A DNA stretch of 64,000 nt from Phycisphaerae bacterium (GCA_963666835.2 CAXXGO010000001.1:1280001-1344000); one strand, 5' to 3'. Counted from the stretch's first letter, positions 4,347 to 45,270 are shown. Program-made: numbers and translations. Notes: generated by a model from the letters alone, not told the origin.

Positions 4347-4625
4347 CTGGCCCCTCTTCAAAGGTGGGGGACTGGCGTCACTTTCTCCGTTGTGCGAAAC
4401 ACGGCCGGGTGGCCCACGTCCTTTTGATTTGTGCGGATACTCTGATTGGTTGAGGGTCGTTCAAGGCTATGTCGTCTGGACGTGGGGGAGCCGATGATAT
4501 ACCCTCCCGTGCACGCCGACGCATCTTCGCTCTTGCCCCGAAGGAGCCCAGGTGTGTAGCCAGGGGGCGCAAGCCCCTGGTGAGGGTGCCGCCAATGTCG
4601 ATTAGCCCCGAGAGGCGACAGAAGG
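4347..4625. repeat. mosaic of REP-like palindromic modules
   Basis: About 90-bp CCCACGTCC..GGACGTGGG module (4407-4497) plus GTAGCCAGGGGGCGCAAGCCCCTGG hairpin; both recur at 6110-6293. Confidence 0.75.
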
Positions 4626-6109: not shown

Positions 6110-6293
6110 TCTTGCCCCGAGGGGGCTCGGGTGTGTAGCCAGGGGGGGCAAGCCCCTGGCCGCGTGGCCCGTGCCGTTCTGAATTGCGCGGATATTCCGA
6201 TCGAGTGGCCCACGTGCTTTTGACTTGCGCGGATACTCCGATTCGTCGAGAATCACGCGAGCCTATGTTGTCTGCACGTGGGGGAGCCGATGA
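6110..6293. repeat. REP-like mosaic, second copy of modules at 4407-4580
   Basis: Same two modules in swapped order. Confidence 0.75.
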
Positions 6294-6368
6294 CATACGG
6301 TCTCCCCCGGGCCACCCGGCCGTTACGTAAGGACCGTGGCAGGCATTGGCACTTACGGTGCAGATCGA

Positions 6369-28764: not shown

Positions 28765-29692
28765 GTAGGGCACGGTCGAGGTACGAGACCTGCCGCCGCC
28801 GGTTCGTTTGCCACGGTCCCGGTTCGTTTGCGACGGAGGTTTCGGATTACGTGGCTGACTTGGGGGCGAGGATCGCGTGTTGAATCGCGGTGGACGCCGC
28901 GGGCTGGGAAGAGCTGTCGCCCCCTGGCGGGGGCTGGAGATGCGGGGTCGGGTGTTGTGAAATCGTTGAGTGGCGCGCGAGGTCGGATGTTGTGAGAACG
29001 TCGCGTGGCCCGGCGAGGTTGCGGCAGGTCTCGTGCCTCGACCTGCCCTACAGGAGTGCCGTATTAGCCCGTCAGGGCGGAAGGTCTTCGAAGCCCGTGG
29101 CGTAAGCCACGGGAACGCGGGCGTTTGGTGAACGAAGCCCCGTCAGGGGCGGCAGATGCGAGGTCGGGTGTTGTGAAACCGTCGCGTGGCCCGGCGAGGT
29201 TGCGGCAGGTCTCGTGCCTCGACCTGCCCTACAGGAGTGCCGTATTAGCCCGTCAGGGCGGAAGGTCTGCGAAGCCCGTGGCGTAAGCCACGGGAACGCG
29301 GGCGTTTGGTGAACGAAGCCCCGCCAGGGGCGGTACTCGGTAAGGACGGCATTCGATATGTCGCATACGTGGCAGCCACGAACGTTCGAGAAAGAGTACG
29401 CGGTGCTGCTCGCGTGGCGCGGCGAGGTTGCGGCAGGTCTCGTGCCTCGACCTGCCCTATAGGAGTGCCGTATTAGCCCGTCAGGGCGGAAGGTCTTCGA
29501 AGCCCGTGGCGTAAGCCACGGGAACGCGGGCGTTTGGTGAACGAAGCCCCGCCAGGGGCGGTACTCGGTAAGGACGGCATTCGATATGTCGCATACGTGG
29601 CAGCCACGAACGTTCGAGAAAGAGTACGCGGTGCTGCTCGCGTGGCGCGGCGAGGTTGCGGCAGGTCTCGTGCCTCGACCTGCCCTACAGGA
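28765..29692. repeat. tandem REP mosaic with 181/228/228-bp periodicity
   Basis: GGCGAGGTTGCGGCAGGTCTCGTGCCTCGACCTGCCCTA at 29012, 29193, 29421, 29649, alternating with CCCGTGGCGTAAGCCACGGG hairpins; inverted copy at 28765. Confidence 0.9.
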
Positions 29693-30148: not shown

Positions 30149-30526
30149 GCGGCACTGCAAACGGGTGGCGTATCGCTTTAGCGGCGGGGGACTCCGCAAT
30201 ACGCCGAAGGCCGGGTGGCCCATGGCTTTGGCCGTGGCGGACTGGCTGGCCGGCCGGCACATCTTCTTGGCGGAGGGGAACTCCTCAATACGCCGAAGAT
30301 AGTGACATATGTCCACCGCGACCGTGTGGCGATCACCGGGGGCTTTGCCCCCAGACCCCCAAGGTTTGTCGCTTGGGAGCCAGAACAGGCCAGGGAGAGC
30401 GAGAGCCCGCCGTGCATGCAGACTCCCGCGCCTGTCCCGGCACTGGTACGAGCGCTCGGGGTGCTCCTCAGCAGAGCCCTGTCCTCTCGACCAGCACACA
30501 CAAGTCTGACGTGCTGTGCCATCGAG

Positions 30527-31300
30527 TCAAGCATGCTGGCCCTCCAACTCATGATCGATCTCCAGGTACTCCTGAACCAGGAAGATGCTGCAACCTAAAG
30601 CATGGGCTGTCTCCTTTGCCGTCAGCCCCTGAAGATGGCAGTGGCGGACGCGATCGTACTGGCCCAGGTAACGATCCACAGCCTCAAGGCTGTGGTACGT
30701 TTCCCGAGCCACTTCGTTAGCCGCTTTGCCTTCTGCGTAATGTTTGAAACAGATGATCCGTTTGTGCGTAAGCCCTGTGCCGACATCGTGGACAGTAGCG
30801 CGACGTGGGACGATCTGACCGGTCTCGCGTTCGTACGCCGCCAACAATCGCGAGACGTCCGACGCATTGACTGCTAACAACTCCGAGAGATCAGAGTTGG
30901 ACAGAACGCCCCCTTGTTCGTACGCCTGTCGGCATAACCTCAAGCTCTTTTGTAAGAGCAACTCTCCACGTCCCTTCTTCTGCAAACGCATCTCGATATC
31001 CTCGAAGGTACTCACGTCCAAGACCACCGGAAGCAGATCGGTATCCTCAATCCGTCGACGCTGACTCGGGGGATCTGCGCTGCTGATCGCCATCCAGAGT
31101 ATCTGACCATGTTGGATATGCTCCTTCGGGAGAACGTGGGCACCGATGACCTCAAGGATCATCTCTGCGCACAGGTTGCGAATCCGTGGGCCGCCTATGC
31201 GTGGAAACTCCGTTTCGATGCGGTGAGCCAACACGTTTCTCAGCGTTTTCGCCTGCAGGGGACTGTATCTTCTGCTGTTGGTGTCTCGCGGCTTACCCAT
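30527..31300 (-). CDS. DUF1670-like protein B
   Basis: QAYEQGGVLSNSDL, PRRATVHDVGTGLTHK, HSLEAVDRY; family recognised from memory of motifs. Confidence 0.8.
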   Translation of the reverse strand: MGKPRDTNSRRYSPLQAKTLRNVLAHRIETEFPRIGGPRIRNLCAEMILEVIGAHVLPKEHIQHGQILWMAISSADPPSQRRRIEDTDLLPVVLDVSTFEDIEMRLQKKGRGELLLQKSLRLCRQAYEQGGVLSNSDLSELLAVNASDVSRLLAAYERETGQIVPRRATVHDVGTGLTHKRIICFKHYAEGKAANEVARETYHSLEAVDRYLGQYDRVRHCHLQGLTAKETAHALGCSIFLVQEYLEIDHELEGQHA

Positions 31301-32144
31301 CGGATCTTCCCTCTTCACCGAGCTCCTTTTTCCCCCCGCCACAACAACCCAGGCGCATCAGTTCTTCCAGGTGATAGCCCATGTTCTTGTCGACCGCGCA
31401 TTCGTCGAGGAGATCAAGGTACTGTTGTACCAACCGCTTGCCTCTCCGCAGAAGGAAGGCGATTTGCCCGACCTGCATACCTTTCTTTGCCAACTGCGCA
31501 CAACGGGTGAATGTCGAGACGTAGTTCGCTACAGCCGCCGGTGAATGGCGAAGCATGGTGCAGATCTGTGAGGTCGTCTTTCCCTCCAGAGCCAAACGCA
31601 CGATTTGGCTGCGATGAGTCAACACGGGACCAAGATCGTGTACGATTCCTCGCAGAGGAATAAGCACCCCGGGATACGCACTCCGGAGAGCGTTCAAATC
31701 GCGCGTAATGGTTCGTGGCGTAACAAAGAACATCCGGTAGGCCAGATCTTCGCGCGTGAGCAGCCCACCTTGACTCAGGGCTTCTTGGCAAAGCGGTGGG
31801 ATGCGGGCTTGTCGAAAGCCGACCGGCCCCTCCTCCTCCAGAAGTCGATCATCCTCTGCACCTCGGTGGATTGTCAGGCACACGTTCTGCTTCTGGCATT
31901 CGCAGACGGGTTTCCCGGCAGGCTCGTCGGCGTCGACGACGACCAAGCCAATCTTGCCAGGTGGGGCCTTGCCGGCGTGTTCATCGAGGTACGGGAAGTA
32001 AACTTCCTTGACCACATCGAGAACCGCCTCGGCCTCGAATGGCGAACAATGGAGTCCGTGCTTGATTTCGTGCAAAAACTTGGCATCCAGTGTCTTCGAG
32101 TCAAGACGCTCAAGCCTCTCCTTCTTCTTGTTCCGCAGCCCCAT
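31293..32144 (-). CDS. DUF1670-like protein A
   Basis: EPAGKP, EALSQGGLLTREDL, RTITRDL, PLRGIVHDLG, HSPAAVANY. Confidence 0.8.
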   Translation of the reverse strand: MGLRNKKKERLERLDSKTLDAKFLHEIKHGLHCSPFEAEAVLDVVKEVYFPYLDEHAGKAPPGKIGLVVVDADEPAGKPVCECQKQNVCLTIHRGAEDDRLLEEEGPVGFRQARIPPLCQEALSQGGLLTREDLAYRMFFVTPRTITRDLNALRSAYPGVLIPLRGIVHDLGPVLTHRSQIVRLALEGKTTSQICTMLRHSPAAVANYVSTFTRCAQLAKKGMQVGQIAFLLRRGKRLVQQYLDLLDECAVDKNMGYHLEELMRLGCCGGGKKELGEEGRSDG

Positions 32145-32211
32145 GCGTAGTCCTCCCAAGTCCCGAAGTCCGTTACCAAGGTACCCGGGTGGACATATGT
32201 CAGGAAGGTAG

Positions 32212-32535
32212 GCGTTACGTCCCGCAGCCCAGGGTTGCCGCGGAGCGGCCACCCTGGAGTGACGGTCACATCAAAGACCAACCCTGACGGGGTTGCGACA
32301 CTGTTCAACCCACTTCGAGGTTGGTCTGGGAAGGGGCTTTGTGACTCAGGGTGGCACTGCGTGGCTGCGCCGCTTCGTTTACCCTGGGCCTTGTTGTGAA
32401 ACACCTTTGGCGTATGTTCGGAAAAGGTGAACCGTCCCGAAGGGACGTGGGCATGCAGCCACGGGTGGAACGCAGCGGAACCCGTGGGCGAGGTTTGTCT
32501 CCCAAGGCCGCCCGTCCCGGCGGGCCGGCGGACTG
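32212..32535. repeat. REP cluster including an unoccupied target-type REP
   Basis: 32283-32423 matches the joined flanks of element copy 2; 32440-32533 recurs at 37578-37669. Confidence 0.85.
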
Positions 32536-32725
32536 ATGATGCCCTTCGGCGTCGAATGTAGCCGAGAATTCTCGATGTTGCACCGGAGGCGGGATTCACC
32601 TAATCGGGTGACAACACGTTATTCCCCGGAGCTTCGTAGAGCTCGGGGAATGAGACGTTCCACAATGGCGCCCGCCGCGTGACGACCTGGATTCAACCTT
32701 CCAAGAATATTCTCGAAGAAAAGGC

Positions 32726-32760
32726 TTGACTGCAATGTTAGGGGGGGGGGGGGGTACCAT
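32726..32760 (+). promoter_or_regulatory. possible sigma70 promoter with a G14 tract in the spacer
   Basis: TTGACT-gcaatgtta-G14-TACCAT in an AT-richer patch. Confidence 0.35.
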
Positions 32761-32819
32761 ACAAGAGTTCAAAGGTCGTCGGTAAAAGACAAAACAGATT
32801 CTGTGGTTCGATAGAGCGC

Positions 32820-33245
32820 GGTCGAGCCGCGTGGTGCGTCGCTTCAGTGGTTGGGTGCCGCATCGCTTTGGCGGTGGGAGACCCGACAGCACCTTGAGCG
32901 CCCGGCCGCGATCAGTACGGCGAGCGTGAGCGACCCGCCCGATGTGATGGTAGCGCAGGGCCGGCTCCCTGACGGTTGCGGTACTGACATGCGGGGCCAC
33001 GTCTTGCCGGGTCGCCCGGCGCTTCAGCGGCCGGAGACACGAACTGACACGGAGGCGGCACTGGCAAGCAACTCGACAGTGGATTGAGTGGCCTGCCGCG
33101 GTCAGTACGGTGAGCATAAGCGATCCGCTCTGGGCGCGTGGTGCGTCGGGCCGGCTCCCTGACGGTCGCGGTACTGAATGGTGCCTGCGGGCGCTGTGAC
33201 GGTTGTAGTCTCGTAGGGCACGGTCGAGGCACGAGACCTGCCGGA
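32820..33245. repeat. REP-like mosaic
   Basis: GGGCCGGCTCCCTGACGGTYGCGGTACTGA twice (about 32958 and 33148); GCCGCGRTCAGTACGG twice; REP at 33213. Confidence 0.75.
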
Positions 33246-33380
33246 AGAGCGGTTTGCGCAGGCCTGAGCCCCGAAAGCACCGGTCAAGCGCTCGGCGTGC
33301 GCGCAAAATCGGCAAGGATGTAACACCTGTCCACGTGGACAAGGTAGATCGTTTTTCATATCTTGGATAGGAGAAGTCAC

Positions 33381-34439
33381 ATGGTAGCGACTGAGACGAA
33401 GATCGTGGCCGCATGTTGCAGTGTTTTGATGATGCTCCCGTCATGGGCATGGGCGCAGCTCTACGCCCCACCGGACGCGACGGTTGACCTTCCGGTGCAG
33501 GTCGTACAGAGCGCCCAGAATCGCACGCCCGAGGAGATACGAGCGTGGGCGTTTACGGACGAGTATGTTCTGCAGTACCTAGTCAGCAACGCGTATTCGA
33601 TCGGCACGTTCGAGGCGATGTGGCCCGCAGGTGATCCGGACATTCACGCGATGATCGTTGAGCCGCCGGACTACCCGGGACAGATTGTGTTGATCGACTC
33701 GACGGTGGACCCCGAGGAGGCGGAGGAACTACCGGTGGTAGATACTGGCACGTTCACCGAGTTTGCCCGCTACGCAGCTGACAATGTCGCCGTGGGTGTC
33801 AGCTTCGTAGCAGGGACTTTTAGCCGGTCGGGCAGTGAACTGGTTGTTGTGGGACTCGAATTGGCGGTGGTCGTCGAGGACGCGGACCTACCGGAGCCCA
33901 TTGTAGTGAGGACGTTTCGGTCATTGGATGTCATTCCTGATGAAGACTTGGCGCACGCGACGGCTTATCGCTACGCTGTACTGAGCGCGAACCACTCGTC
34001 GGGGAGCGGTGGAAAGGACGCACTCGTTCAACGCACGCACCCCGCTATGATGGCTGAGCCGGAAGGCAACAACACGCCGGCACGCGACAACTGCGGGTGT
34101 TTCATGACGCTTCGGCACAGTCTCCAGGAAGCGCAGGATGAACGAAACAGGGATATCGCCAGTCTTCTGGGCACATATACGGGCTTAATCATAGGGGCCG
34201 TTGCTGCTTGCTTGGCGTTCCATTTCTTCGCAGCCACATGCGTTGGGCTCACTGTCGGCTCGCTTTTGACTGTGGCCTCGATCGAGTTTGAGATGATAGA
34301 CACTGCGTATGTGCACACATGCGATAGGCATCGGGATCTTTACGACGCGTGTTGCGACAGGACGGGTTGTGTTTGCCCAGGGTTGCCATGTTTTGGACAG
34401 GGCGATAGAATCCCGGAGGGCGCACTGATTGCAGACTGA
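33381..34439 (+). CDS. secreted protein with Cys-rich hydrophobic C-terminus
   Basis: AGGAGA RBS, signal peptide AWA-Q, C-terminal hydrophobic hairpin bracketed by Cys. Confidence 0.75.
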   Translation: MVATETKIVAACCSVLMMLPSWAWAQLYAPPDATVDLPVQVVQSAQNRTPEEIRAWAFTDEYVLQYLVSNAYSIGTFEAMWPAGDPDIHAMIVEPPDYPGQIVLIDSTVDPEEAEELPVVDTGTFTEFARYAADNVAVGVSFVAGTFSRSGSELVVVGLELAVVVEDADLPEPIVVRTFRSLDVIPDEDLAHATAYRYAVLSANHSSGSGGKDALVQRTHPAMMAEPEGNNTPARDNCGCFMTLRHSLQEAQDERNRDIASLLGTYTGLIIGAVAACLAFHFFAATCVGLTVGSLLTVASIEFEMIDTAYVHTCDRHRDLYDACCDRTGCVCPGLPCFGQGDRIPEGALIAD

Positions 34440-34440
34440 T

Positions 34441-35385
34441 ATGTCAACATCGAAGGGTCCGAGTACTCGCCGCAGGCGGTCGCGGATCGCGACGTTTTTC
34501 GTTAACGTGGTCACTCAGGGCGCCGGGCTGCCTTGGGCGGTCCTCAGAATGCACGTGCTTCGCGATTACTTGGGGATAGTGTGTTTGTTTGTTCTTGGAT
34601 TCGGAAGCTTGGTCTTTGCGGCAAGCTCGGCATGGCCGAGAGGGTCTGCGGCTCTCTATCTGGGAACGGTCGTTTATGGGGGATTCGCTGCGTTGGGATT
34701 GCGCCGCTCCTGCATTGAGGTTCAGCTGAAGCGAGAGGTCGCAAGCATGGGAAACGCTGCTTGCCTTGAGTGCGGGCGTCGGCTTATTGAGAGAAACGGC
34801 CAATGTCCGGCGTGCGGATGGGAATACGAAGATGTCGGCGAAGTAACCAAGTTCTGGGCTGAATGGGAGCCGTGTGCTGGTCTGTTGTACAGGATATCCG
34901 GGGGGCGCAGAGCGGATTGCATGCAGCCCGGCCGAGTGAAACCGGCTCTTTTGACCAGGCTCCGCATGCGTTTCGAGGTGCTCTTCATTGTTTGCGGTGT
35001 GATGATTGGGGGCGTTGTTTTGGTGTACGGTCGCTGTCTGCAAGGCGCAGCGTCGTTATCGGCGTTGTTGTGGCCTTACCTTGTCGCCGTGTTCGCCTTG
35101 GTTGTCGTGCTTAGTCTCGGTTGCCGGTTCGCAGAACGGCGCCTCAAACGTGACGTGGTCGGTAAGGACAACGCAGCCTGCTTCGAGTGCGGGTACTGGC
35201 TCACCGAGCCGACCGGCCGTTGCCCGGAGTGTGGTTGGGCGTACGAGAGTCTTGAAGATGTTGTGCGGTTTTGGAGCGAATGGCAGCCGTTCCGGCGCTT
35301 TCCGCGGCTACGGAAGCAGAAGGCGGTGGAGGCCGAAGGTTCGGGTGATCCTGGCTCTTCGAAGGAGGTGTCAGCGCCCGAGTGA
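34441..35385 (+). CDS. membrane protein with two (2TM + zinc ribbon) modules
   Basis: CLECG..CPACGW and CFECGY..CPECGW. Confidence 0.75.
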   Translation: MSTSKGPSTRRRRSRIATFFVNVVTQGAGLPWAVLRMHVLRDYLGIVCLFVLGFGSLVFAASSAWPRGSAALYLGTVVYGGFAALGLRRSCIEVQLKREVASMGNAACLECGRRLIERNGQCPACGWEYEDVGEVTKFWAEWEPCAGLLYRISGGRRADCMQPGRVKPALLTRLRMRFEVLFIVCGVMIGGVVLVYGRCLQGAASLSALLWPYLVAVFALVVVLSLGCRFAERRLKRDVVGKDNAACFECGYWLTEPTGRCPECGWAYESLEDVVRFWSEWQPFRRFPRLRKQKAVEAEGSGDPGSSKEVSAPE

Positions 35386-35626
35386 CACGAGCCGGACATA
35401 TTGGGTGCCCGCGGGGCGCCCCGTTTCTCACATGGCATGGGGCGGGGCGCCCGCGCGGTTGCACCGGGTTTCGTTCTCTGAACCAGCGGTACGACGCGTA
35501 AGGGGTGGACCGGCCCTTCCTCACAGGCTGCCTCAGGTTATCGGATCTGGAATTGCAGCGCAGCTCGCAGAAAATCGTAGCCGGATATTGGGCATGCTGC
35601 AATATCTACAAATGTTGTGATGAGCC

Positions 35627-36619
35627 ATGTTGGTGATGAGCCACTGTGAGATGCTTCCTGGCATTGTCGTCAGAATAGGTCGCCGTTTCGGGCTCTTGGG
35701 GTTGGCCTCGATGGCCGCGCCGTTCCTCGTTGTCTTCTGGGCGGGCTGGTACGTTGATTTTTCTGTGGGAGGGGCAACGCGTCCATTTGGGCTCTTTGTG
35801 GGCTGTGCCATTGTTTGTGTCATCGCATTCGCCGCTATGGTGTCAGTGTGGCAAATGCGGGTCGAGACGCGGCTACATTGCGACGTGGCGAGCAAGGGCT
35901 TTGCCGTGTGCTTTGAGTGCGGGCATCGGCTCGCCGGGAGCGGCGGGCATTGTCCCAAATGTGACTGGGAGTATGACGATATCGAGCAGGTTGTCAGTTG
36001 CTGGGCAAACTGGAAGCCGTCCGAGTATCTGTTTCGCAGGACGAGCGTAGAGGGTACGGACGCGCCGGTTGCCGTTGCGGGGGCGCGAAGCGCCGATGGG
36101 TCGATTATCGACTGCAACGGACCCGGTGTAGTAACGAGCGGTCGCGTGCTGCAGAAACTCGGTAGCCCGCTGATTCTGAACAGGATTCTGAACCGCCACG
36201 ACGCGCTCGGCCTGATAGCGTTTCTCTCAGTCGTCGGCGTCTATATGGTGCATGTCTGGAACGTGCCGGGCTCAGGTACGCCTTCATTAAGCAGGATGTT
36301 CGGTTATATTGCGGCCGGATTGGGCACCACCGTTCTATGCAAGGTGTTTCGCTTGTTCGCGGAGCAGCGGCTGAAACGCGATGTGGCCGGTAAGAACAAC
36401 GCTGCGTGCTTCGGATGCGGCTACTGGCTCACGGAGCCGAGTGGGCGGTGTCCGGAGTGTGGTTGGGCGTACGAGAGTCTTGAAGAGGTCAGAGGGTCCT
36501 GGACGGAGTGGCAACCGTGTTGGTACTTTCTCAGCCGAAGGAACAGGAGGCGGCAAGGCGCCGGCGATACGCTGGACCAAGACGGCGCGGATTCGGCGGC
36601 AACGGCCGATCAGCGCTGA
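35627..36619 (+). CDS. paralogous membrane protein with two (2TM + zinc ribbon) modules
   Basis: CFECGH..CPKCDW and CFGCGY..CPECGW; start uncertain. Confidence 0.72.
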   Translation: MLVMSHCEMLPGIVVRIGRRFGLLGLASMAAPFLVVFWAGWYVDFSVGGATRPFGLFVGCAIVCVIAFAAMVSVWQMRVETRLHCDVASKGFAVCFECGHRLAGSGGHCPKCDWEYDDIEQVVSCWANWKPSEYLFRRTSVEGTDAPVAVAGARSADGSIIDCNGPGVVTSGRVLQKLGSPLILNRILNRHDALGLIAFLSVVGVYMVHVWNVPGSGTPSLSRMFGYIAAGLGTTVLCKVFRLFAEQRLKRDVAGKNNAACFGCGYWLTEPSGRCPECGWAYESLEEVRGSWTEWQPCWYFLSRRNRRRQGAGDTLDQDGADSAATADQR

Positions 36620-36622
36620 CCG

Positions 36623-37315
36623 GTGCAGGCTACCGGCCGACAGCTTGTAACGGGACTATGCGTCGTGGACTCTACTGGTCATGCCGAATCACAGCTTCTT
36701 GCGGATGAATTGGTGTGCGCGGAGTGCGGATACGACCTGCGCGGGCTTCCCGGCGATCCGGTGCAGTGTTCGGAATGTGGCAGGACATGCCCGATCCGGG
36801 AACTGCGCGTGAACGCCGCCGAGATTCAGAAGGAGCTACGCAGGCTGGAGACCTTGCCGACAGCCTGCGTGGCCTCCTTTCTGGTGATGATCTTGGCGCT
36901 CGGTTGGGCTTGGTGGACGGGACGATCGGCATTCGGCGTACCGGTGGTTGTCGCTCTTGCGGGGTATTGGCTGCTGTTGGTACACAGATTCGCGGCGGTT
37001 ATTGAATGGGAGGTCGGATGGATACGGGTGTTGCTCTTGTTCCATATTACCGGGTTGGTTGGCGCGGTCTTGCTTGGGACGATCTGGTTCGCCGGTGTTA
37101 TACTGTTGATCCACTGCACCGGCGGGCCGTCATTCTGTGACGCGGCGATTCACCTGATTGTCATGGCCATGGCTGTTTCGGTCGCGGGACTGTTCACGGT
37201 GGTTCGACTGCTGAACCGAAGAGCTCGGATCGCGCAAAGGAAGCTGCAACACCGTCTGGCCATCCGACTCGCCCAGCTCAACCGAGGGGCCAATCGTCCT
37301 TTGATTAACATTTGA
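36623..37315 (+). CDS. zinc-ribbon multi-TM protein
   Basis: CAECGYDLRGL..CSECG, then about 4 TM helices. Confidence 0.7.
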   Translation: MQATGRQLVTGLCVVDSTGHAESQLLADELVCAECGYDLRGLPGDPVQCSECGRTCPIRELRVNAAEIQKELRRLETLPTACVASFLVMILALGWAWWTGRSAFGVPVVVALAGYWLLLVHRFAAVIEWEVGWIRVLLLFHITGLVGAVLLGTIWFAGVILLIHCTGGPSFCDAAIHLIVMAMAVSVAGLFTVVRLLNRRARIAQRKLQHRLAIRLAQLNRGANRPLINI

Positions 37316-37379
37316 TGCGGCTAAAGTCAGTCCTGCAGCGTTTGGTCTCCTGCCTCGGCTGTGCCGCACAAAGCTGTCA

Positions 37380-37920
37380 ACAGGGTGGCATGGGCCAACT
37401 TGTTGGCTTGTGGGATCGCGCCACGCGTTCCCGGGGGTGAACCGCGGTCGCAACTTGGCGACAGGTCTTGTGCCTCGATCGTGCCCGACACCCGTGGACG
37501 CTGCGCTACAAAGGGGCCGTCGTAATCAGTACGGCAAGCGCGAGCGACTCGCCCTTGGTCGATATGCAGTCCCTTTAGGGACGTGGGCATGTAGCCACGG
37601 GTGGAGCGTAGCGGAACCCGTGGGCGAGGTTTGCCTCCCAAGCCCGCCCGTCCCGAAGGGCTGGCGGACGGTTACCGCGAATCACGCGAAGATCTGGCGG
37701 AATAGCGAAGTGTCGGCAATACGGCACTATCGACCCAGGGGCAAGCTGAAAGCGTCCATGCCGAAGCGCGTAATCTGGCGGTGTGCGGCGGAATGGCTTG
37801 CGCGCGAGCTACGCTATGCCCATGCCACGCGCCATGGCAGGTCTCGTTCCTCGACCGTGCCCTACGAGGGACCGACGCAAGCTCCGAACGGGTGGCCCGT
37901 GGCTTTAGCCGTGGGGGACG
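37380..37920. repeat. REP-like mosaic
   Basis: Modules shared with about 32440, 29021, 39124 and 45170. Confidence 0.7.
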
Positions 37921-37948
37921 CCCTCCGAGGGACTGAGGGGAGCCCGGG

Positions 37949-38896
37949 TCATCCGAAGCTGGCTGCTATTATGACGATGTAGATGCCGATGAATGGCGGG
38001 ACGACGAAGATCAGAGCTGCGAGCGTGAGCCAGAGCAGGGGCACGGACACGGCAATCAACGTCGCCCGCCTCCTGACGCGCGGCATAGCTCTTTGGGCAG
38101 TTCGCACGAGGTTCACCCACCAGGTGAACGCCACCATCCCGGCTGACAGGATGATCATCAGCCACCGGAGTTCCCAGATCTCCGCGCATGTCCAACGCCA
38201 GGATGTTCCATAGTATGGTTTGTACAACAGAACGGTGGTCGACAGCATCATGAGGACCAGGATTGCGAATGCCGCCAGCGGGCCGCAAGCGTAGTAGCTC
38301 AGCGTGCTTGCGGCGTTCTGCCGGGCAAGTGGCACGTTCCGGGGCCGGAAAAAGTCGCTGGGCACCCCGGTGGCGGCGATCAGAAAGAACAGCATGAGAG
38401 CCAGCCCAATCGCCAGCGGCCAGCCGGCTGTACAGGCATAGTCCCACAACAACGGCGGTATGGGGCCGCGATGGATCAGCTCGCGAAGCGGATCTCCCAC
38501 GACCTTCGGAGCCCGGGCGATGGCGGAGGTAACCACGACCGCCGTCACCGGCACGAAGACGTGCGCAATCGTGACCCATCGGAAGCTCTGAGCGTCTGCG
38601 CGGCTGACCGGGCGAATGCACTCCTCGCTGAAGCGCTGGTTCCGGAATGTCACCATCCAGACCGTGCGCCAGTAGCTCTTGAGGAGCCCGCGCTCTCGGC
38701 GGTGGACCCAAGGTATCCCCGACTCTGTCGACCGTAGGTTTTCCAGGGAGTGGCCGCACTCGGGGCAGCGGTTGCTGACGACCCCGCGCAGGTCATAGGT
38801 GCATTCCGAGCAGTAGACTCCAGGCTCAATTGCCGGCAGAGCGTTGGGTTGCTCATTGTCCGGTGCGTCGTTAGCGATAACAGATTCGTCTGCCAT
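37949..38896 (-). CDS. zinc-ribbon multi-TM protein
   Basis: CSECTYDLRG..CPECG, IPW, about 5 TM helices. Confidence 0.75.
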   Translation of the reverse strand: MADESVIANDAPDNEQPNALPAIEPGVYCSECTYDLRGVVSNRCPECGHSLENLRSTESGIPWVHRRERGLLKSYWRTVWMVTFRNQRFSEECIRPVSRADAQSFRWVTIAHVFVPVTAVVVTSAIARAPKVVGDPLRELIHRGPIPPLLWDYACTAGWPLAIGLALMLFFLIAATGVPSDFFRPRNVPLARQNAASTLSYYACGPLAAFAILVLMMLSTTVLLYKPYYGTSWRWTCAEIWELRWLMIILSAGMVAFTWWVNLVRTAQRAMPRVRRRATLIAVSVPLLWLTLAALIFVVPPFIGIYIVIIAASFG

Positions 38897-39034
38897 GCCG
38901 GGGGTGTCCTGTCATGCACGGATTCTGCGGTTCGTGGAGCGAACCGCACCCCATCCGAAGAACCGACCACCCTCATCATGGCAGGCTCCGGGGGTAAGGT
39001 CAAGATACGCCGTGCTGGTCGGCATGGCCGATGC

Positions 39035-39274
39035 GAGGTTGCGGCAGGTCTCGTGCCTCGACCATGCCCTACGTAGCTGCACTGCTCAAGAGTAGTGGCA
39101 CACCCGAGAACCCAGGTGTGGACGGGTGGCCCATGGCTTTAGCCGTGGGGGACCTGACGGGGTTGCGACGCTGTTCGACCCACTTCGGGGTTGGTCTGGG
39201 AAGGGGCTTTGTGACCCAGGGTGGCACTGCGCGGCTGCGCCGCTTCGTTTACCCTGGGCTTTGTTGTGAAACGC
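39035..39274. repeat. REP mosaic ending in the occupied target REP
   Basis: 39153-39274 near-identical to 32283-32404. Confidence 0.85.
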
Positions 39275-39341
39275 CTACCTTCCTGACATATGTCCACCCG
39301 GGTACCTTGGTAACGGACTTCGGGACTTGGGAGGACTACGC

Positions 39342-40193
39342 ATGGGGCTGCGGAACAAGAAGAAGGAGAGGCTTGAGCGTCTTGACTCGAAGACACTGGA
39401 TGCCAAGTTTTTGCACGAAATCAAGCACGGACTCCATTGTTCGCCATTCGAGGCCGAGGCGGTTCTCGATGTGGTCAAGGAAGTTTACTTCCCGTACCTC
39501 GATGAACACGCCGGCAAGGCCCCACCTGGCAAGATTGGCTTGGTCGTCGTCGACGCCGACGAGCCTGCCGGGAAACCCGTCTGCGAATGCCAGAAGCAGA
39601 ACGTGTGCCTGACAATCCACCGAGGTGCAGAGGATGATCGACTTCTGGAGGAGGAGGGGCCGGTCGGCTTTCGACAAGCCCGCATCCCACCGCTTTGCCA
39701 AGAAGCCCTGAGTCAAGGTGGGCTGCTCACGCGCGAAGATCTGGCCTACCGGATGTTCTTTGTTACGCCACGAACCATTACGCGCGATTTGAACGCTCTC
39801 CGGAGTGCGTATCCCGGGGTGCTTATTCCTCTGCGAGGAATCGTACACGATCTTGGTCCCGTGTTGACTCATCGCAGCCAAATCGTGCGTTTGGCTCTGG
39901 AGGGAAAGACGACCTCACAGATCTGCACCATGCTTCGCCATTCACCGGCGGCTGTAGCGAACTACGTCTCGACATTCACCCGTTGTGCGCAGTTGGCAAA
40001 GAAAGGTATGCAGGTCGGGCAAATCGCCTTCCTTCTGCGGAGAGGCAAGCGGTTGGTACAACAGTACCTTGATCTCCTCGACGAATGCGCGGTCGACAAG
40101 AACATGGGCTATCACCTGGAAGAACTGATGCGCCTGGGTTGTTGTGGCGGGGGGAAAAAGGAGCTCGGTGAAGAGGGAAGATCCGATGGGTAA
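39342..40193 (+). CDS. DUF1670-like protein A
   Basis: GGAGGA RBS; identical translation to 31293-32144. Confidence 0.8.
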   Translation: MGLRNKKKERLERLDSKTLDAKFLHEIKHGLHCSPFEAEAVLDVVKEVYFPYLDEHAGKAPPGKIGLVVVDADEPAGKPVCECQKQNVCLTIHRGAEDDRLLEEEGPVGFRQARIPPLCQEALSQGGLLTREDLAYRMFFVTPRTITRDLNALRSAYPGVLIPLRGIVHDLGPVLTHRSQIVRLALEGKTTSQICTMLRHSPAAVANYVSTFTRCAQLAKKGMQVGQIAFLLRRGKRLVQQYLDLLDECAVDKNMGYHLEELMRLGCCGGGKKELGEEGRSDG

Positions 40194-40959
40194 GCCGCGA
40201 GACACCAACAGCAGAAGATACAGTCCCCTGCAGGCGAAAACGCTGAGAAACGTGTTGGCTCACCGCATCGAAACGGAGTTTCCACGCATAGGCGGCCCAC
40301 GGATTCGCAACCTGTGCGCAGAGATGATCCTTGAGGTCATCGGTGCCCACGTTCTCCCGAAGGAGCATATCCAACATGGTCAGATACTCTGGATGGCGAT
40401 CAGCAGCGCAGATCCCCCGAGTCAGCGTCGACGGATTGAGGATACCGATCTGCTTCCGGTGGTCTTGGACGTGAGTACCTTCGAGGATATCGAGATGCGT
40501 TTGCAGAAGAAGGGACGTGGAGAGTTGCTCTTACAAAAGAGCTTGAGGTTATGCCGACAGGCGTACGAACAAGGGGGCGTTCTGTCCAACTCTGATCTCT
40601 CGGAGTTGTTAGCAGTCAATGCGTCGGACGTCTCGCGATTGTTGGCGGCGTACGAACGCGAGACCGGTCAGATCGTCCCACGTCGCGCTACTGTCCACGA
40701 TGTCGGCACAGGGCTTACGCACAAACGGATCATCTGTTTCAAACATTACGCAGAAGGCAAAGCGGCTAACGAAGTGGCTCGGGAAACGTACCACAGCCTT
40801 GAGGCTGTGGATCGTTACCTGGGCCAGTACGATCGCGTCCGCCACTGCCATCTTCAGGGGCTGACGGCAAAGGAGACAGCCCATGCTTTAGGTTGCAGCA
40901 TCTTCCTGGTTCAGGAGTACCTGGAGATCGATCATGAGTTGGAGGGCCAGCATGCTTGA
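40186..40959 (+). CDS. DUF1670-like protein B
   Basis: GAGGGA RBS, overlaps gene A by 8 nt; identical translation to 30527-31300. Confidence 0.8.
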   Translation: MGKPRDTNSRRYSPLQAKTLRNVLAHRIETEFPRIGGPRIRNLCAEMILEVIGAHVLPKEHIQHGQILWMAISSADPPSQRRRIEDTDLLPVVLDVSTFEDIEMRLQKKGRGELLLQKSLRLCRQAYEQGGVLSNSDLSELLAVNASDVSRLLAAYERETGQIVPRRATVHDVGTGLTHKRIICFKHYAEGKAANEVARETYHSLEAVDRYLGQYDRVRHCHLQGLTAKETAHALGCSIFLVQEYLEIDHELEGQHA

Positions 40960-41168
40960 CTCGATGGCACAGCACGTCAGACTTGTGTGTGCTGGTCGAG
41001 AGGACAGGGCTCTGCTGAGGAGCACCCCGAGCGCTCGTACCAGTGCCGGGACAGGCGCGGGAGTCTGCATGCACGGCGGGCTCTCGCTCTCCCTGGCCTG
41101 TTCTGGCTCCCAAGCGACAAACCTTGGGGGTCTGGGGGCAAAGCCCCCGGTGATCGCCACACGGTCGC
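40960..41168 (+). ncRNA. candidate structured RNA in the element's 3' non-coding region (mirror copy 30318-30526)
   Basis: Series of hairpins that need G-U pairs on the sense strand; expression unknown. Confidence 0.4.
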
Positions 41169-41290
41169 GGTGGACATATGTCACTATCTTCGGCGTATGT
41201 TCGGAAGATGTACGTCGCACGAAGACCAGCGGCAGGTCTCGTTCCTCGACCATGCCCTACGAGGGGAAGCAGAAGCGCGCTTGCGAGCGG

Positions 41291-43910: not shown

Positions 43911-44080
43911 CGCCGGCTGGCCCGCCTCTTTGGAGGTGGGGAGCCCCATTCTGTGTGTTGCGGGAGATACTGCAGATGCCTGCGCTACGCGAAGGGGTCC
44001 CCCACGTCCAGACGGCATTACCTCGGGCGATTCTCGACGGATTGGACTGTGCGCGAAAGTCAAAAGGACGTGGGCCACCC
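43911..44080. repeat. REP-like mosaic with the 80-90 bp CACGTCC module
   Basis: 44003-44080 nearly identical to 45079-45155. Confidence 0.85.
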
Positions 44081-44138
44081 GGCCACCCGGCCGGAGGTGG
44101 AATGCGCTGCTTGTGGCGACTAGAATCGGGCGTGGAGG

Positions 44139-45009: not shown

Positions 45010-45270
45010 CCGGGTGGCTTATCGCTTTAGCGGTGGGGAACTCGTTCGAGTGTGAGCAGACATTGTCATCGGGTCCATCACGTCCAGACGGCATTACCTC
45101 GGGCGATTCTCCACGGATTGGACTGTGCGCGAAAGTCAAAAGGACGTGGGCCACCCAGTGCGGTATGCCCCACGGGTCAACAAGTTGACCCATGCCACCC
45201 ATGCGGCACGCTTGTGGGATTCCATCTTGTGCGTTGTGCGAGATAATGCAGGCAGGATGCCTGCGCTAGG
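45010..45270. repeat. REP-like mosaic
   Basis: Modules shared with 43950-44080, 30163 and 37383. Confidence 0.8.

Follow-up and report, generated by a model that had tools for sequence, protein, structure and literature searches.

A candidate insertion sequence whose only genes are two DUF1670 paralogs, inserted at the tip of a REP-like hairpin in a Phycisphaerae bacterium

Introduction

A 64,000-nucleotide (nt) stretch of DNA from a Phycisphaerae bacterium (GCA_963666835.2, CAXXGO010000001.1:1280001-1344000), referred to here as the window, contains two copies of a mobile element that interrupt repeats resembling repeated extragenic palindromes (REPs). The element is 1,913 bp long, counted with one CT (the right-hand one), and its only genes are two overlapping open reading frames (ORFs) that are paralogs of the DUF1670 family. 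Positions are counted from the first letter of the window, of which 39,035 to 39,341 are displayed above; C numbers give positions elsewhere in the assembly, and L numbers denote individual loci.

Layout of the element and its junctions

The two window copies, the parts of copy 2 and the repeats that both copies split are as follows.

30283-30296, minus strand: right half of the target hairpin split by copy 1
30297-32209, minus strand: copy 1 of the element, in the opposite orientation to copy 2
32210-32280, minus strand: family B REP-like repeat split by copy 1; it is the left flank in element orientation and starts with the left CT
32381-32425, plus strand: unoccupied, slightly degenerate paralog of the target, AACACCTTTGGCGTAT, back to back with the family B repeat
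39153-39276, plus strand: family A REP-like repeat split by copy 2, 94% identical to 32283-32406
39275-39276, plus strand: left CT of copy 2, a shared core or a duplicated dinucleotide
39277-41189, plus strand: copy 2 of the element, 1,913 bp, identical in sequence to copy 1
39277-39283, plus strand: left terminal extension ACCTTCC, 7 nt long and external to the inverted repeat; its ACCTTC is conserved in 13 of 17 related loci
39284-39298, plus strand: left subterminal inverted repeat TGACATATGTCCACC, with the core palindrome GACATATGTC
39342-40193, plus strand: ORF1, 283 aa, DUF1670 (E 1.9e-37) and HTH_23
40186-40959, plus strand: ORF2, 257 aa, DUF1670 (E 1.9e-49)
40994-41148, no strand assigned: noncoding module of the right end, about 155 nt, which recurs in a relic at C6:796207 and in an IS110-family element resident in the genome
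41169-41183, plus strand: right subterminal inverted repeat GGTGGACATATGTCA
41184-41187, plus strand: 4-nt right terminal extension CTAT; the final AT is conserved in relatives
41188-41189, plus strand: right CT of copy 2
41190-41203, plus strand: right half of the target hairpin split by copy 2, TCGGCGTATGTTCG

A first-pass annotation of the window had placed both copies at the same CT of the same hairpin, and the junctions it gave were found as written when both ends were re-read. In copy 2, the flank ...CCCTGGGCT-ttgttgtga-AACGC[CT] is followed by the element, which runs from ACCTTCCTGACATATGTCCACC to GGTGGACATATGTCACTAT[CT], and then by TCGGCGTATgt. Copy 1, read on the minus strand, is preceded by ...CCCTGGGCT-gcgggacgt-AACGC[CT] and ends in [CT]TCGGCGTATtg. 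Each left flank is composed of CCCTGGGCT, nine variable bases and AACGC-CT, each right flank of CT-TCGGCGTAT, and the two junctions have nothing but CT in common. With the element and one CT removed, the flanks join to give AACGCCTTCGGCGTAT, and the palindrome ACGCC-TTC-GGCGT lies within it. The inverted-repeat arms that hold the two copies (30288-32235 and 39251-41198) take in nine differing flank bases, and their printed identity of "100%" is a rounding.

The same arrangement holds throughout the assembly (7 contigs, 6.02 Mb), in which there are six full copies that differ pairwise at 0-4 of 1,913 positions. All six occupy the site AAYGC[CT]WCGGCGTA and face the same way with respect to the repeat, and in all six CT alone is repeated at both ends. 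The genome-wide collection of sites therefore agrees with what the annotation had said of a shared palindromic target, a shared orientation and a CT-only repeat; no copy lies in unrelated sequence or has a variable duplication. A solo 41-nt right end of the element at C6:1881239-1881279 (locus L008) is still joined through its CT to TCGGCGTA; the remainder was lost there by deletion or rearrangement. With this stub included, the motif is present at 7/7 right junctions (six copies and the stub) and at 6/6 left junctions.

The element has moved recently. In public sequencing runs the depth of the element contig is about 5-7 times that of its flanks (X1, 36.4 versus 6.7-8.5; X2, 91.8 versus 11.6-14.5), and contigs of paralogous repeats run uninterrupted from ...AACGCCT into TCGGCGTA over window position 39276. 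The closest genomes are about 78% identical in the neighbouring typA/bipA gene, too distant for an intergenic search for the empty orthologous site in relatives.

The left end of the element has the order CT-ACCTTCC-TGACATATGTCCACC, and the right end the order GGTGGACATATGTCA-CTAT-CT. The inverted repeats are 15 bp long and subterminal, with extensions of 7 nt on the left and 4 nt on the right, and CATATG within them is conserved among relatives. A promoter scan of the left end returned no promoter. In IS1111, according to PMC11187229, the subterminal inverted repeats are 11-13 bp, and the left and right terminal extensions measure 7 bp and 3 bp. The DUF1670 element resembles the IS1111 group (ISEc11, IS4321/IS5075) in its extensions (7/4 versus 7/3), in site- and orientation-specific insertion into repeated palindromic targets without a long duplication, and in a longer noncoding region downstream of the genes.

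The target repeat and the choice of hairpin

The target hairpin is AACGCCTTCGGCGTA, with the palindrome ACGCC-TTC-GGCGT and the CT at its tip. At copy 2 the family A repeat comprises a first hairpin, CCCAGGGT...ACCCTGGG, a 9-nt linker and the left half of ACGCC-TTC-GGCGT. The degenerate 13-mer A[CT][GA]CCT[TA][CT]GGCGT occurs at 54 further, unoccupied sites in the genome versus 3.5 expected from base composition; 39 of these end a family A repeat, 9 end a family B repeat and 6 lie elsewhere. Occupancy is 2/41 for family A and 4/13 for family B (Fisher p = 0.025, on a small sample).

Hairpins of this general shape are numerous. In all, 241 perfect C(TTC)G hairpins with a 5-bp stem are present in the genome; they fall into 81 sequence classes, of which the element uses ACGCC only, and 44 copies of that class are empty. 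Other classes at hand are unused: GTCCC (30 copies), AGCCC (27) and GCCCC (7). Since ACGCC alone is used although other hairpins are present, the choice must read the arms and not the shape alone. Chance is excluded as the source of this pattern, because all six copies lie at the motif, 54 sites are found where 3.5 are expected, and one of 81 hairpin classes is used. The proposal that insertion is sequence-specific and directed to a multicopy intergenic hairpin repeat is thereby upheld, with 48 copies of the repeat standing empty.

Families A and B also occur back to back, 185-188 nt apart with the target hairpins facing outward, in five pairs; this arrangement is seen at 32210-32420 of the window and at five further sites, C1:75349/75536 and C6:127719/127904 among them. 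Such a pair has the look of a small composite unit bounded by hairpins. Six family A repeats lie in tandem with a 312-nt period at C6:1905568-1907140, all six unoccupied. Many family A repeats are followed by a repeat of about 35 nt, GGCAGGTCTCGTnCCTCGACCATGCCCTACG, which is found at about 100 places in the genome and flanks copy 2 on both sides (39031-39075 and 41228-41262).

The two-hairpin layout of the target repeats is similar to that of Acido-Lenti-1, whose Rfam consensus has a first hairpin, GGCU, about 10 nt and a second hairpin ...GCC-UUC-GGC.... The model RF01687 (gathering score 37 bits) gave no match at E<=10 in nine stretches with intact family A or B repeats. Other repeats of the genome do match it, at least 85 of them at E<=1 and one over the cut-off (150 of 1,395 candidates scored). 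Two-hairpin repeats of the Acido-Lenti-1-like type are plentiful genome-wide, and one lies in the window at 32433-32487 (minus strand). At the loci of relatives, Acido-Lenti-1 accounts for 12 of 13 Rfam matches at E<=0.1; seven are above the gathering score and adjoin elements, and these seven are beside the elements of an Acidobacteriota relative. At locus L033 an Acido-Lenti-1 match stops a few bases short of the left junction.

The target of IS621 is likewise a repeated extragenic palindrome, and the REP-targeting insertion sequences that are known use IS110- or IS3-family transposases and the like. The DUF1670 element shares with such insertion sequences, the subject of a 2006 paper by Tobes and Pareja, a landing site in a multicopy extragenic hairpin repeat and is unlike them in lacking their transposases. 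Strict REPs are short extragenic palindromic repeats that go with a Y1 (IS200-like) gene for a REP-associated tyrosine transposase (RAYT). The repeats here are multicopy and palindromic, and the genome has nine Y1_Tnp (RAYT-type) matches; between one of these, C1:801499-801843, and the repeat copy at C1:801004 there are roughly 500 nt.

The DUF1670 genes and their products

The start of ORF2 overlaps the stop of ORF1 by 8 nt. The scores of the two products against DUF1670 (PF07900), 129.2 and 168.5 bits versus a cut-off of 25, make both members of the family, and the 12 DUF1670 matches of the genome are exactly two genes in each of six copies.

The first-pass annotation had taken the element for a relative of IS621 in the IS110 family. 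An IS110/IS621-type insertion sequence, with a DEDD recombinase and a bridge RNA, would explain CT at both junctions and the REP-like target; in IS621, according to PMC11208160, CT is conserved in target and donor, and CT is likewise common to the donor ends and target of the DUF1670 element. On the protein criterion this assignment is refuted: neither DEDD_Tnp_IS110 nor Transposase_20 is found in either ORF, and the sole IS110-family transposase of the genome belongs to a different element of 1,827 bp. No bridge-RNA-like match was found. In contrast to IS621, the enzyme class is missing, the search detected no RNA whose loops would bind target and donor, and donor and target are both palindromes with the CT offset from the dyad. 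We regard an IS621-type element as extremely improbable. The IS1111 group differs in the same respect, as the DUF1670 element has two paralogs with multiple helix-turn-helix (HTH) modules in place of a DEDD/RuvC-like plus Tnp_20 transposase; no seekRNA-like guide was found in it, and some relatives have no room for one.

In the AlphaFold model of ORF2 (predicted local distance difference test, pLDDT, 83.5) a small N-terminal domain, made of three helices, a beta hairpin and further helices, is followed by three HTH-like modules. Prediction of a complex of ORF1 and ORF2 gave scores of 0.31 and 0.21 versus a mark of 0.32. Ten residues (K18, D101, R121, D137, R167, D172, H179, H203, Y211 and Y245, in ORF2 numbering) are kept in at least 85% of 95 sequences, and conserved polar residues are common to both paralog types across about 25% identity; judged from the alignment, they may be catalytic. 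A local H-x-R...H-S...Y spacing in ORF2 has a likeness, by eye only, to box II of the tyrosine-recombinase signature (R-K-H-R-H/W-Y). Neither ORF reaches any NCBIfam transposase model, no serine-recombinase chain appeared among the fold-search rows or as a Pfam match, and the ESM Atlas was uninformative, its best score (0.81) being to small archaeal HTH clusters. Longer relatives are tandem DUF1670 fusions (of 15 scanned, four have three matched stretches and six have two), and a recombinase or nuclease domain was found in none of the 15.

One way to read these proteins is that they only recognise and pair the ends and the hairpin, while cutting and joining fall to an enzyme of the host (a junction resolvase, a topoisomerase, or a tyrosine recombinase of Xer or other type), as happens with elements that make use of Xer. 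The modelled DUF1670 proteins appear to be pure DNA binders, both DNA partners are palindromes able to extrude as four-way structures, and the host has 14 Phage_integrase matches; faint IHF/HU-like rows for the N-terminal domain (E>1) are a lead only. However, the same architecture in several phyla would call for one common host enzyme without known site likeness, and none of the loci examined links such a factor to the element. The ends and target are, we presume, unlike a dif-type site. A host-enzyme mechanism therefore seems very unlikely to us.

Relatives and their junctions

At E<=0.001, ORF1 has 1,213 relatives and ORF2 has 1,438, the latter in metagenomes. The longest contig is below 5 kb for 115 of 119 ORF2 relatives among those listed with a contig figure, as is typical of repeats that break assemblies. 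No ORF2 relative was found in plasmid records. A scan of genomes located 63 loci, distributed over Planctomycetota, Acidobacteriota, Bryobacterales and further groups, and in several cases one genome has more than one copy. Seventeen loci, from at least 12 other genomes, have both CATATG palindromes at element spacing and were analysed, the rest having no fetched end or other ends; several of the 17 share one genome and are not independent. Together with the two window copies they form a junction set of 19 elements.

The dinucleotides at the two junctions are identical in 17/19 elements and are CT at both in 15/19. In 18/19, the rebuilt hairpin (stem of at least 4 bp) has the dinucleotide at the edge between 5' arm and loop. 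The arms differ between lineages, with targets such as GCCCC-TNC-GGGGC (L018-L024, L060), CGTCC[CT]ACGGGACG (L015) and CGGCCGCC-TGT-GGCGGCCG (L014). The junction exceptions, given as left/right, are GT/GT (L035), TT/TT (L051), CT/CC (L014) and CT/CG (L022). In some relatives, L035 among them, the repeats reach the right tip, and the joined ends would give, in L035, AAGAT-GT-ACC-ATCTT; from its sequence, a donor of this type is predicted to be an inverted repeat round a 5-nt spacer that starts with the core. The target hairpin of the Phycisphaerae element is built alike (ACGC-CTTCG-GCGT). In an Acidobacteriota genome the corresponding empty target occurs 65 times, versus 4 for the reversed control. 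The elements of this genome are 1.74 kb long with noncoding DNA of about 50-60 nt per end, which leaves no room for a further gene or a guide RNA.

Paired dinucleotides also raise the possibility of non-conservative transposition, autonomous or helped, in which an undetected nuclease (DUF1670 or host) cuts the target with a 2-nt stagger and CT is a 2-bp target-site duplication, like the TA of IS630/Tc1-mariner. The same dinucleotide on both sides in 17/19, the existence of GT/GT and TT/TT variants, and the weak likeness of the ORF1 N-terminal HTH to IS630 transposases (NCBIfam E 0.065, 12.7 bits versus a cut-off of 100) would all fit. However, the dinucleotide is CT and not TA, neither the model nor the Pfam scan reveals a DDE/D catalytic domain or an RNase H fold, and the subterminal repeats with asymmetric extensions are unlike cut-and-paste DDE elements. 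The two unequal pairs, moreover, both have CT on the left: CT/CC and CT/CG are predicted for one daughter of an exchange across a mismatched 2-nt core and not by duplication (n = 2). IS1111-like geometry, the keeping of CT across targets and these two pairs favour, though not strongly, a 2-nt conservative exchange over duplication, and we consider duplication unlikely.

The right-end noncoding module and the resident IS110-family element

The noncoding module of the right end is about 80% identical over 54 nt to the 3' noncoding region of the resident IS110-family element. It has the form TGG-N5-AAGCGAYAAAC-N3-GGGG, with a GGGGC-NNN-GCCCC hairpin whose closing pairs covary, and a second block about 100 nt away; it has no Rfam match. 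Further instances of the module are L012:1493-1564 and those at L104, L111, L130, L149, L153, L157, L164, L167 and other loci. Metagenome instances carry the hairpin as an extra feature (53 sequences aligned), and their neighbours are IS3, IS256, IS21, ISL3, IS110 and IS4/5 transposases and integrases. The scan pattern had 16 fixed bases, and many of the 80 fetched loci are chance matches; DUF1670 genes occur in two of these loci, and the resident IS110 protein has a tblastn match in one. Because the module lies beside many transposase families and is missing from short-ended relatives, it is not specific to the mechanism of the DUF1670 element. At C6:796207-796400 (L007) there is a relic of a second DUF1670-element lineage, composed of the last ORF2-like codons and the right-end module, whose terminus reads like an inverted left end (GGGACAATTGTC-AAGAAGGT-AG).

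The resident element is the sole IS110-family element of the genome. It is IS1111-like, 1,827 bp long and present in five copies; it encodes a 395-aa DEDD transposase, carries CATGAAAGGC as its subterminal repeats and has 560 nt of noncoding DNA on the 3' side. Four copies do not suffice to define its target. All its copies are outside the window.

C1:1129136: copy of the IS110-family element
C6:1567074: copy of the IS110-family element
C6:1729147: copy of the IS110-family element
C6:2674243: copy of the IS110-family element
C7:71352: copy of the IS110-family element

It could be that the DUF1670 element is non-autonomous and is moved in trans by the DEDD recombinase of this resident with an RNA guide, the DUF1670 pair being cargo or accessory, comparable to ssr9 on ISPpu9. 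As precedent, PMC12288879 describes ssr9 as a noncoding module that travels with and apart from the IS110-family ISPpu9 and depends on its transposase. The IS1111-like ends (subterminal repeats, 7-nt left extension, CT core), the shared module, the presence of IS110-family genes in 6/6 DUF1670-bearing genomes tested, and hairpin or REP targets, which are typical of IS110 and IS1111 according to PMC11187229 and PMC11208160, would agree with mobilization in trans.

Against it, the resident has different ends, with CATGAAAGGC repeats, and different targets, and the module, a possible analog of ssr9, is instead found beside many unrelated families, IS3, IS256, IS21, ISL3 and integrase genes among them. 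Multicopy relatives with 60-nt ends do without the module, and both ORFs show strong purifying conservation across phyla, which is unexpected for cargo. A guide was not found either: Rfam detects no RNA family in the DUF1670 element or in the IS110-family element, and target and donor have no common word of at least 8 nt with the noncoding ends of the element, although guides of 4-7 nt would escape this comparison. A scan of the noncoding region in the resident yielded a single 8-mer, no more than chance would give, and did not detect that element's own target either; a genome-wide 7-mer co-occurrence scan for guides returned 832 windows, too noisy to use. We judge mobilization in trans to be decidedly unlikely.

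Proposed mechanism of insertion

Taken together, the element may be an active, autonomous insertion sequence of an undescribed family, with two translationally coupled DUF1670 paralogs as its only genes and a 2-nt-core exchange as its mode of movement, a reading that we hold to be evenly balanced between right and wrong. The mobility, copy number, target, orientation, shared CT, end anatomy and protein family are established, as is their conservation among relatives; catalysis by the DUF1670 pair, a conservative exchange and a circular intermediate are what we infer.

In the scheme we favour, insertion would proceed as follows. Acting as a hetero-oligomer, the paralogs would bind the conserved GACATATGTC palindrome near either end and draw the two ends together. 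The ends would be joined, probably as a circle junction with the order IR-CTAT-CT-ACCTTCC-IR (IR, inverted repeat), and this junction would be paired with a hairpin or palindrome that is rich in GC and matches it in geometry. In each partner, inverted repeats would surround a 5-nt spacer whose first two letters are CT (element, CTACC; target, CTTCG). Strands would then be exchanged across the 2-nt CT. The element would thereby come to lie, in one orientation, in a multicopy repeat of REP-like (Acido-Lenti-1-like) type, at the tip of its second hairpin, with no gene broken.

Two variants of this scheme were considered and set aside. A 5-nt staggered exchange of the tyrosine type (CTACC versus CTTCG) should leave the three swapped nucleotides in about half of the insertions, and none of the six has them. 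Strict targeting of the lagging strand, as a single strand, is unlikely, as two copy pairs 9-92 kb apart on one contig are oppositely oriented.

A number of results weigh against an autonomous, DUF1670-catalysed exchange. At E<=0.1, Pfam finds in both ORFs only DUF1670 and HTH families, and no DEDD_Tnp_IS110, Transposase_20, DDE or recombinase domain; the resident IS110-family ORF, as a positive control, matches both PF01548 and PF02371. The ORF2 model has no Foldseek match in the PDB at E<=0.001, and a VIA fold search of it (best Z 6.5) reaches sigma region 4/DeoR/Mga-type HTH domains over residues 113-257 only. The N-terminal domain modelled alone (pLDDT 82.7) has a best Z of 5.0, with the faint IHF/HU-like rows mentioned above. 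A PDB sequence search gave no meaningful match, and hhalign of the ORF2 alignment with nine tyrosine-recombinase catalytic domains of the same genome gave a probability of 0.4%. The conserved H, S and Y residues are located in HTH helices, where their role may be no more than to read the CATATG palindrome found throughout the family. A simple duplication of 2 bp of target would account just as well for the junctions of 17/19 elements. No circle junction, excision product or empty allele of either window locus was seen in the contigs of the public runs. Finally, IS110-family genes are present in 5/5 other DUF1670-bearing genomes tested versus 6/14 control genomes; DUF1670 at E<=1e-10 occurs in 4/401 sampled genomes of the phylum, too few for a test of association with IS110.

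The first-pass annotation had also called the insertion conservative. The IS1111-like geometry, the kept CT and the CT/CC and CT/CG relatives make that plausible. A 2-bp duplication would give the same junctions, and neither a circle junction nor an excision product appeared among the contigs.

A broader proposal is that the DUF1670 pair represents a new class of protein-only, site-specific transposase or recombinase, with IS1111/IS110 geometry but without a DEDD enzyme or a guide RNA, in which the specificity for hairpin arms has repeatedly been retargeted between lineages (ACGCC here; GCCCC and GTCCC in relatives). It is tentative, being in our estimate somewhat more apt to fail than to hold. 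We found no paper on DUF1670, PF07900, IPR012871 or transposase-less insertion sequences in the literature library searched; ISfinder was outside this search.

DNA surrounding the two copies

Both window copies are surrounded by repeat-rich intergenic DNA. Copy 2 is found some 100 nt downstream of the typA/bipA gene, and copy 1 is located past a class II aldolase gene and a tandem repeat, which has a 228-nt unit in three copies (75-99% identity) at 29001-29637, immediately left of copy 1. Between the two copies (32596-38896) there are seven ORFs of 190-358 aa without a Pfam match at E<=1e-5, and repeats internal to or reaching into this stretch pair 35127-35315 with 36355-36543 and 32441-32533 with 37577-37669. 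Elsewhere in the window a repeat of about 90 nt has four copies (4403-4502, 6202-6298, 43995-44084 and 45066-45156; 76-97% identity), two of which, about 40 kb off, are inverted relative to the others.

Implications

Relatives of the two proteins are now named "hypothetical" or "CsgD-family regulator"; their elements break assemblies and go unrecognised as insertion sequences. Acido-Lenti-1-type repeats, which are abundant and of unknown function, gain a first biological handle as landing pads for these elements. Related elements on hairpins with different arms can be regarded as natural retargeting experiments. If both DUF1670 proteins suffice for movement, they would constitute a type of DNA-rearranging enzyme that family libraries do not recognise and that would be widespread, with more than 1,400 metagenome relatives and with related loci in several phyla; such an enzyme would have base-pair-precise and orientation-specific insertion.

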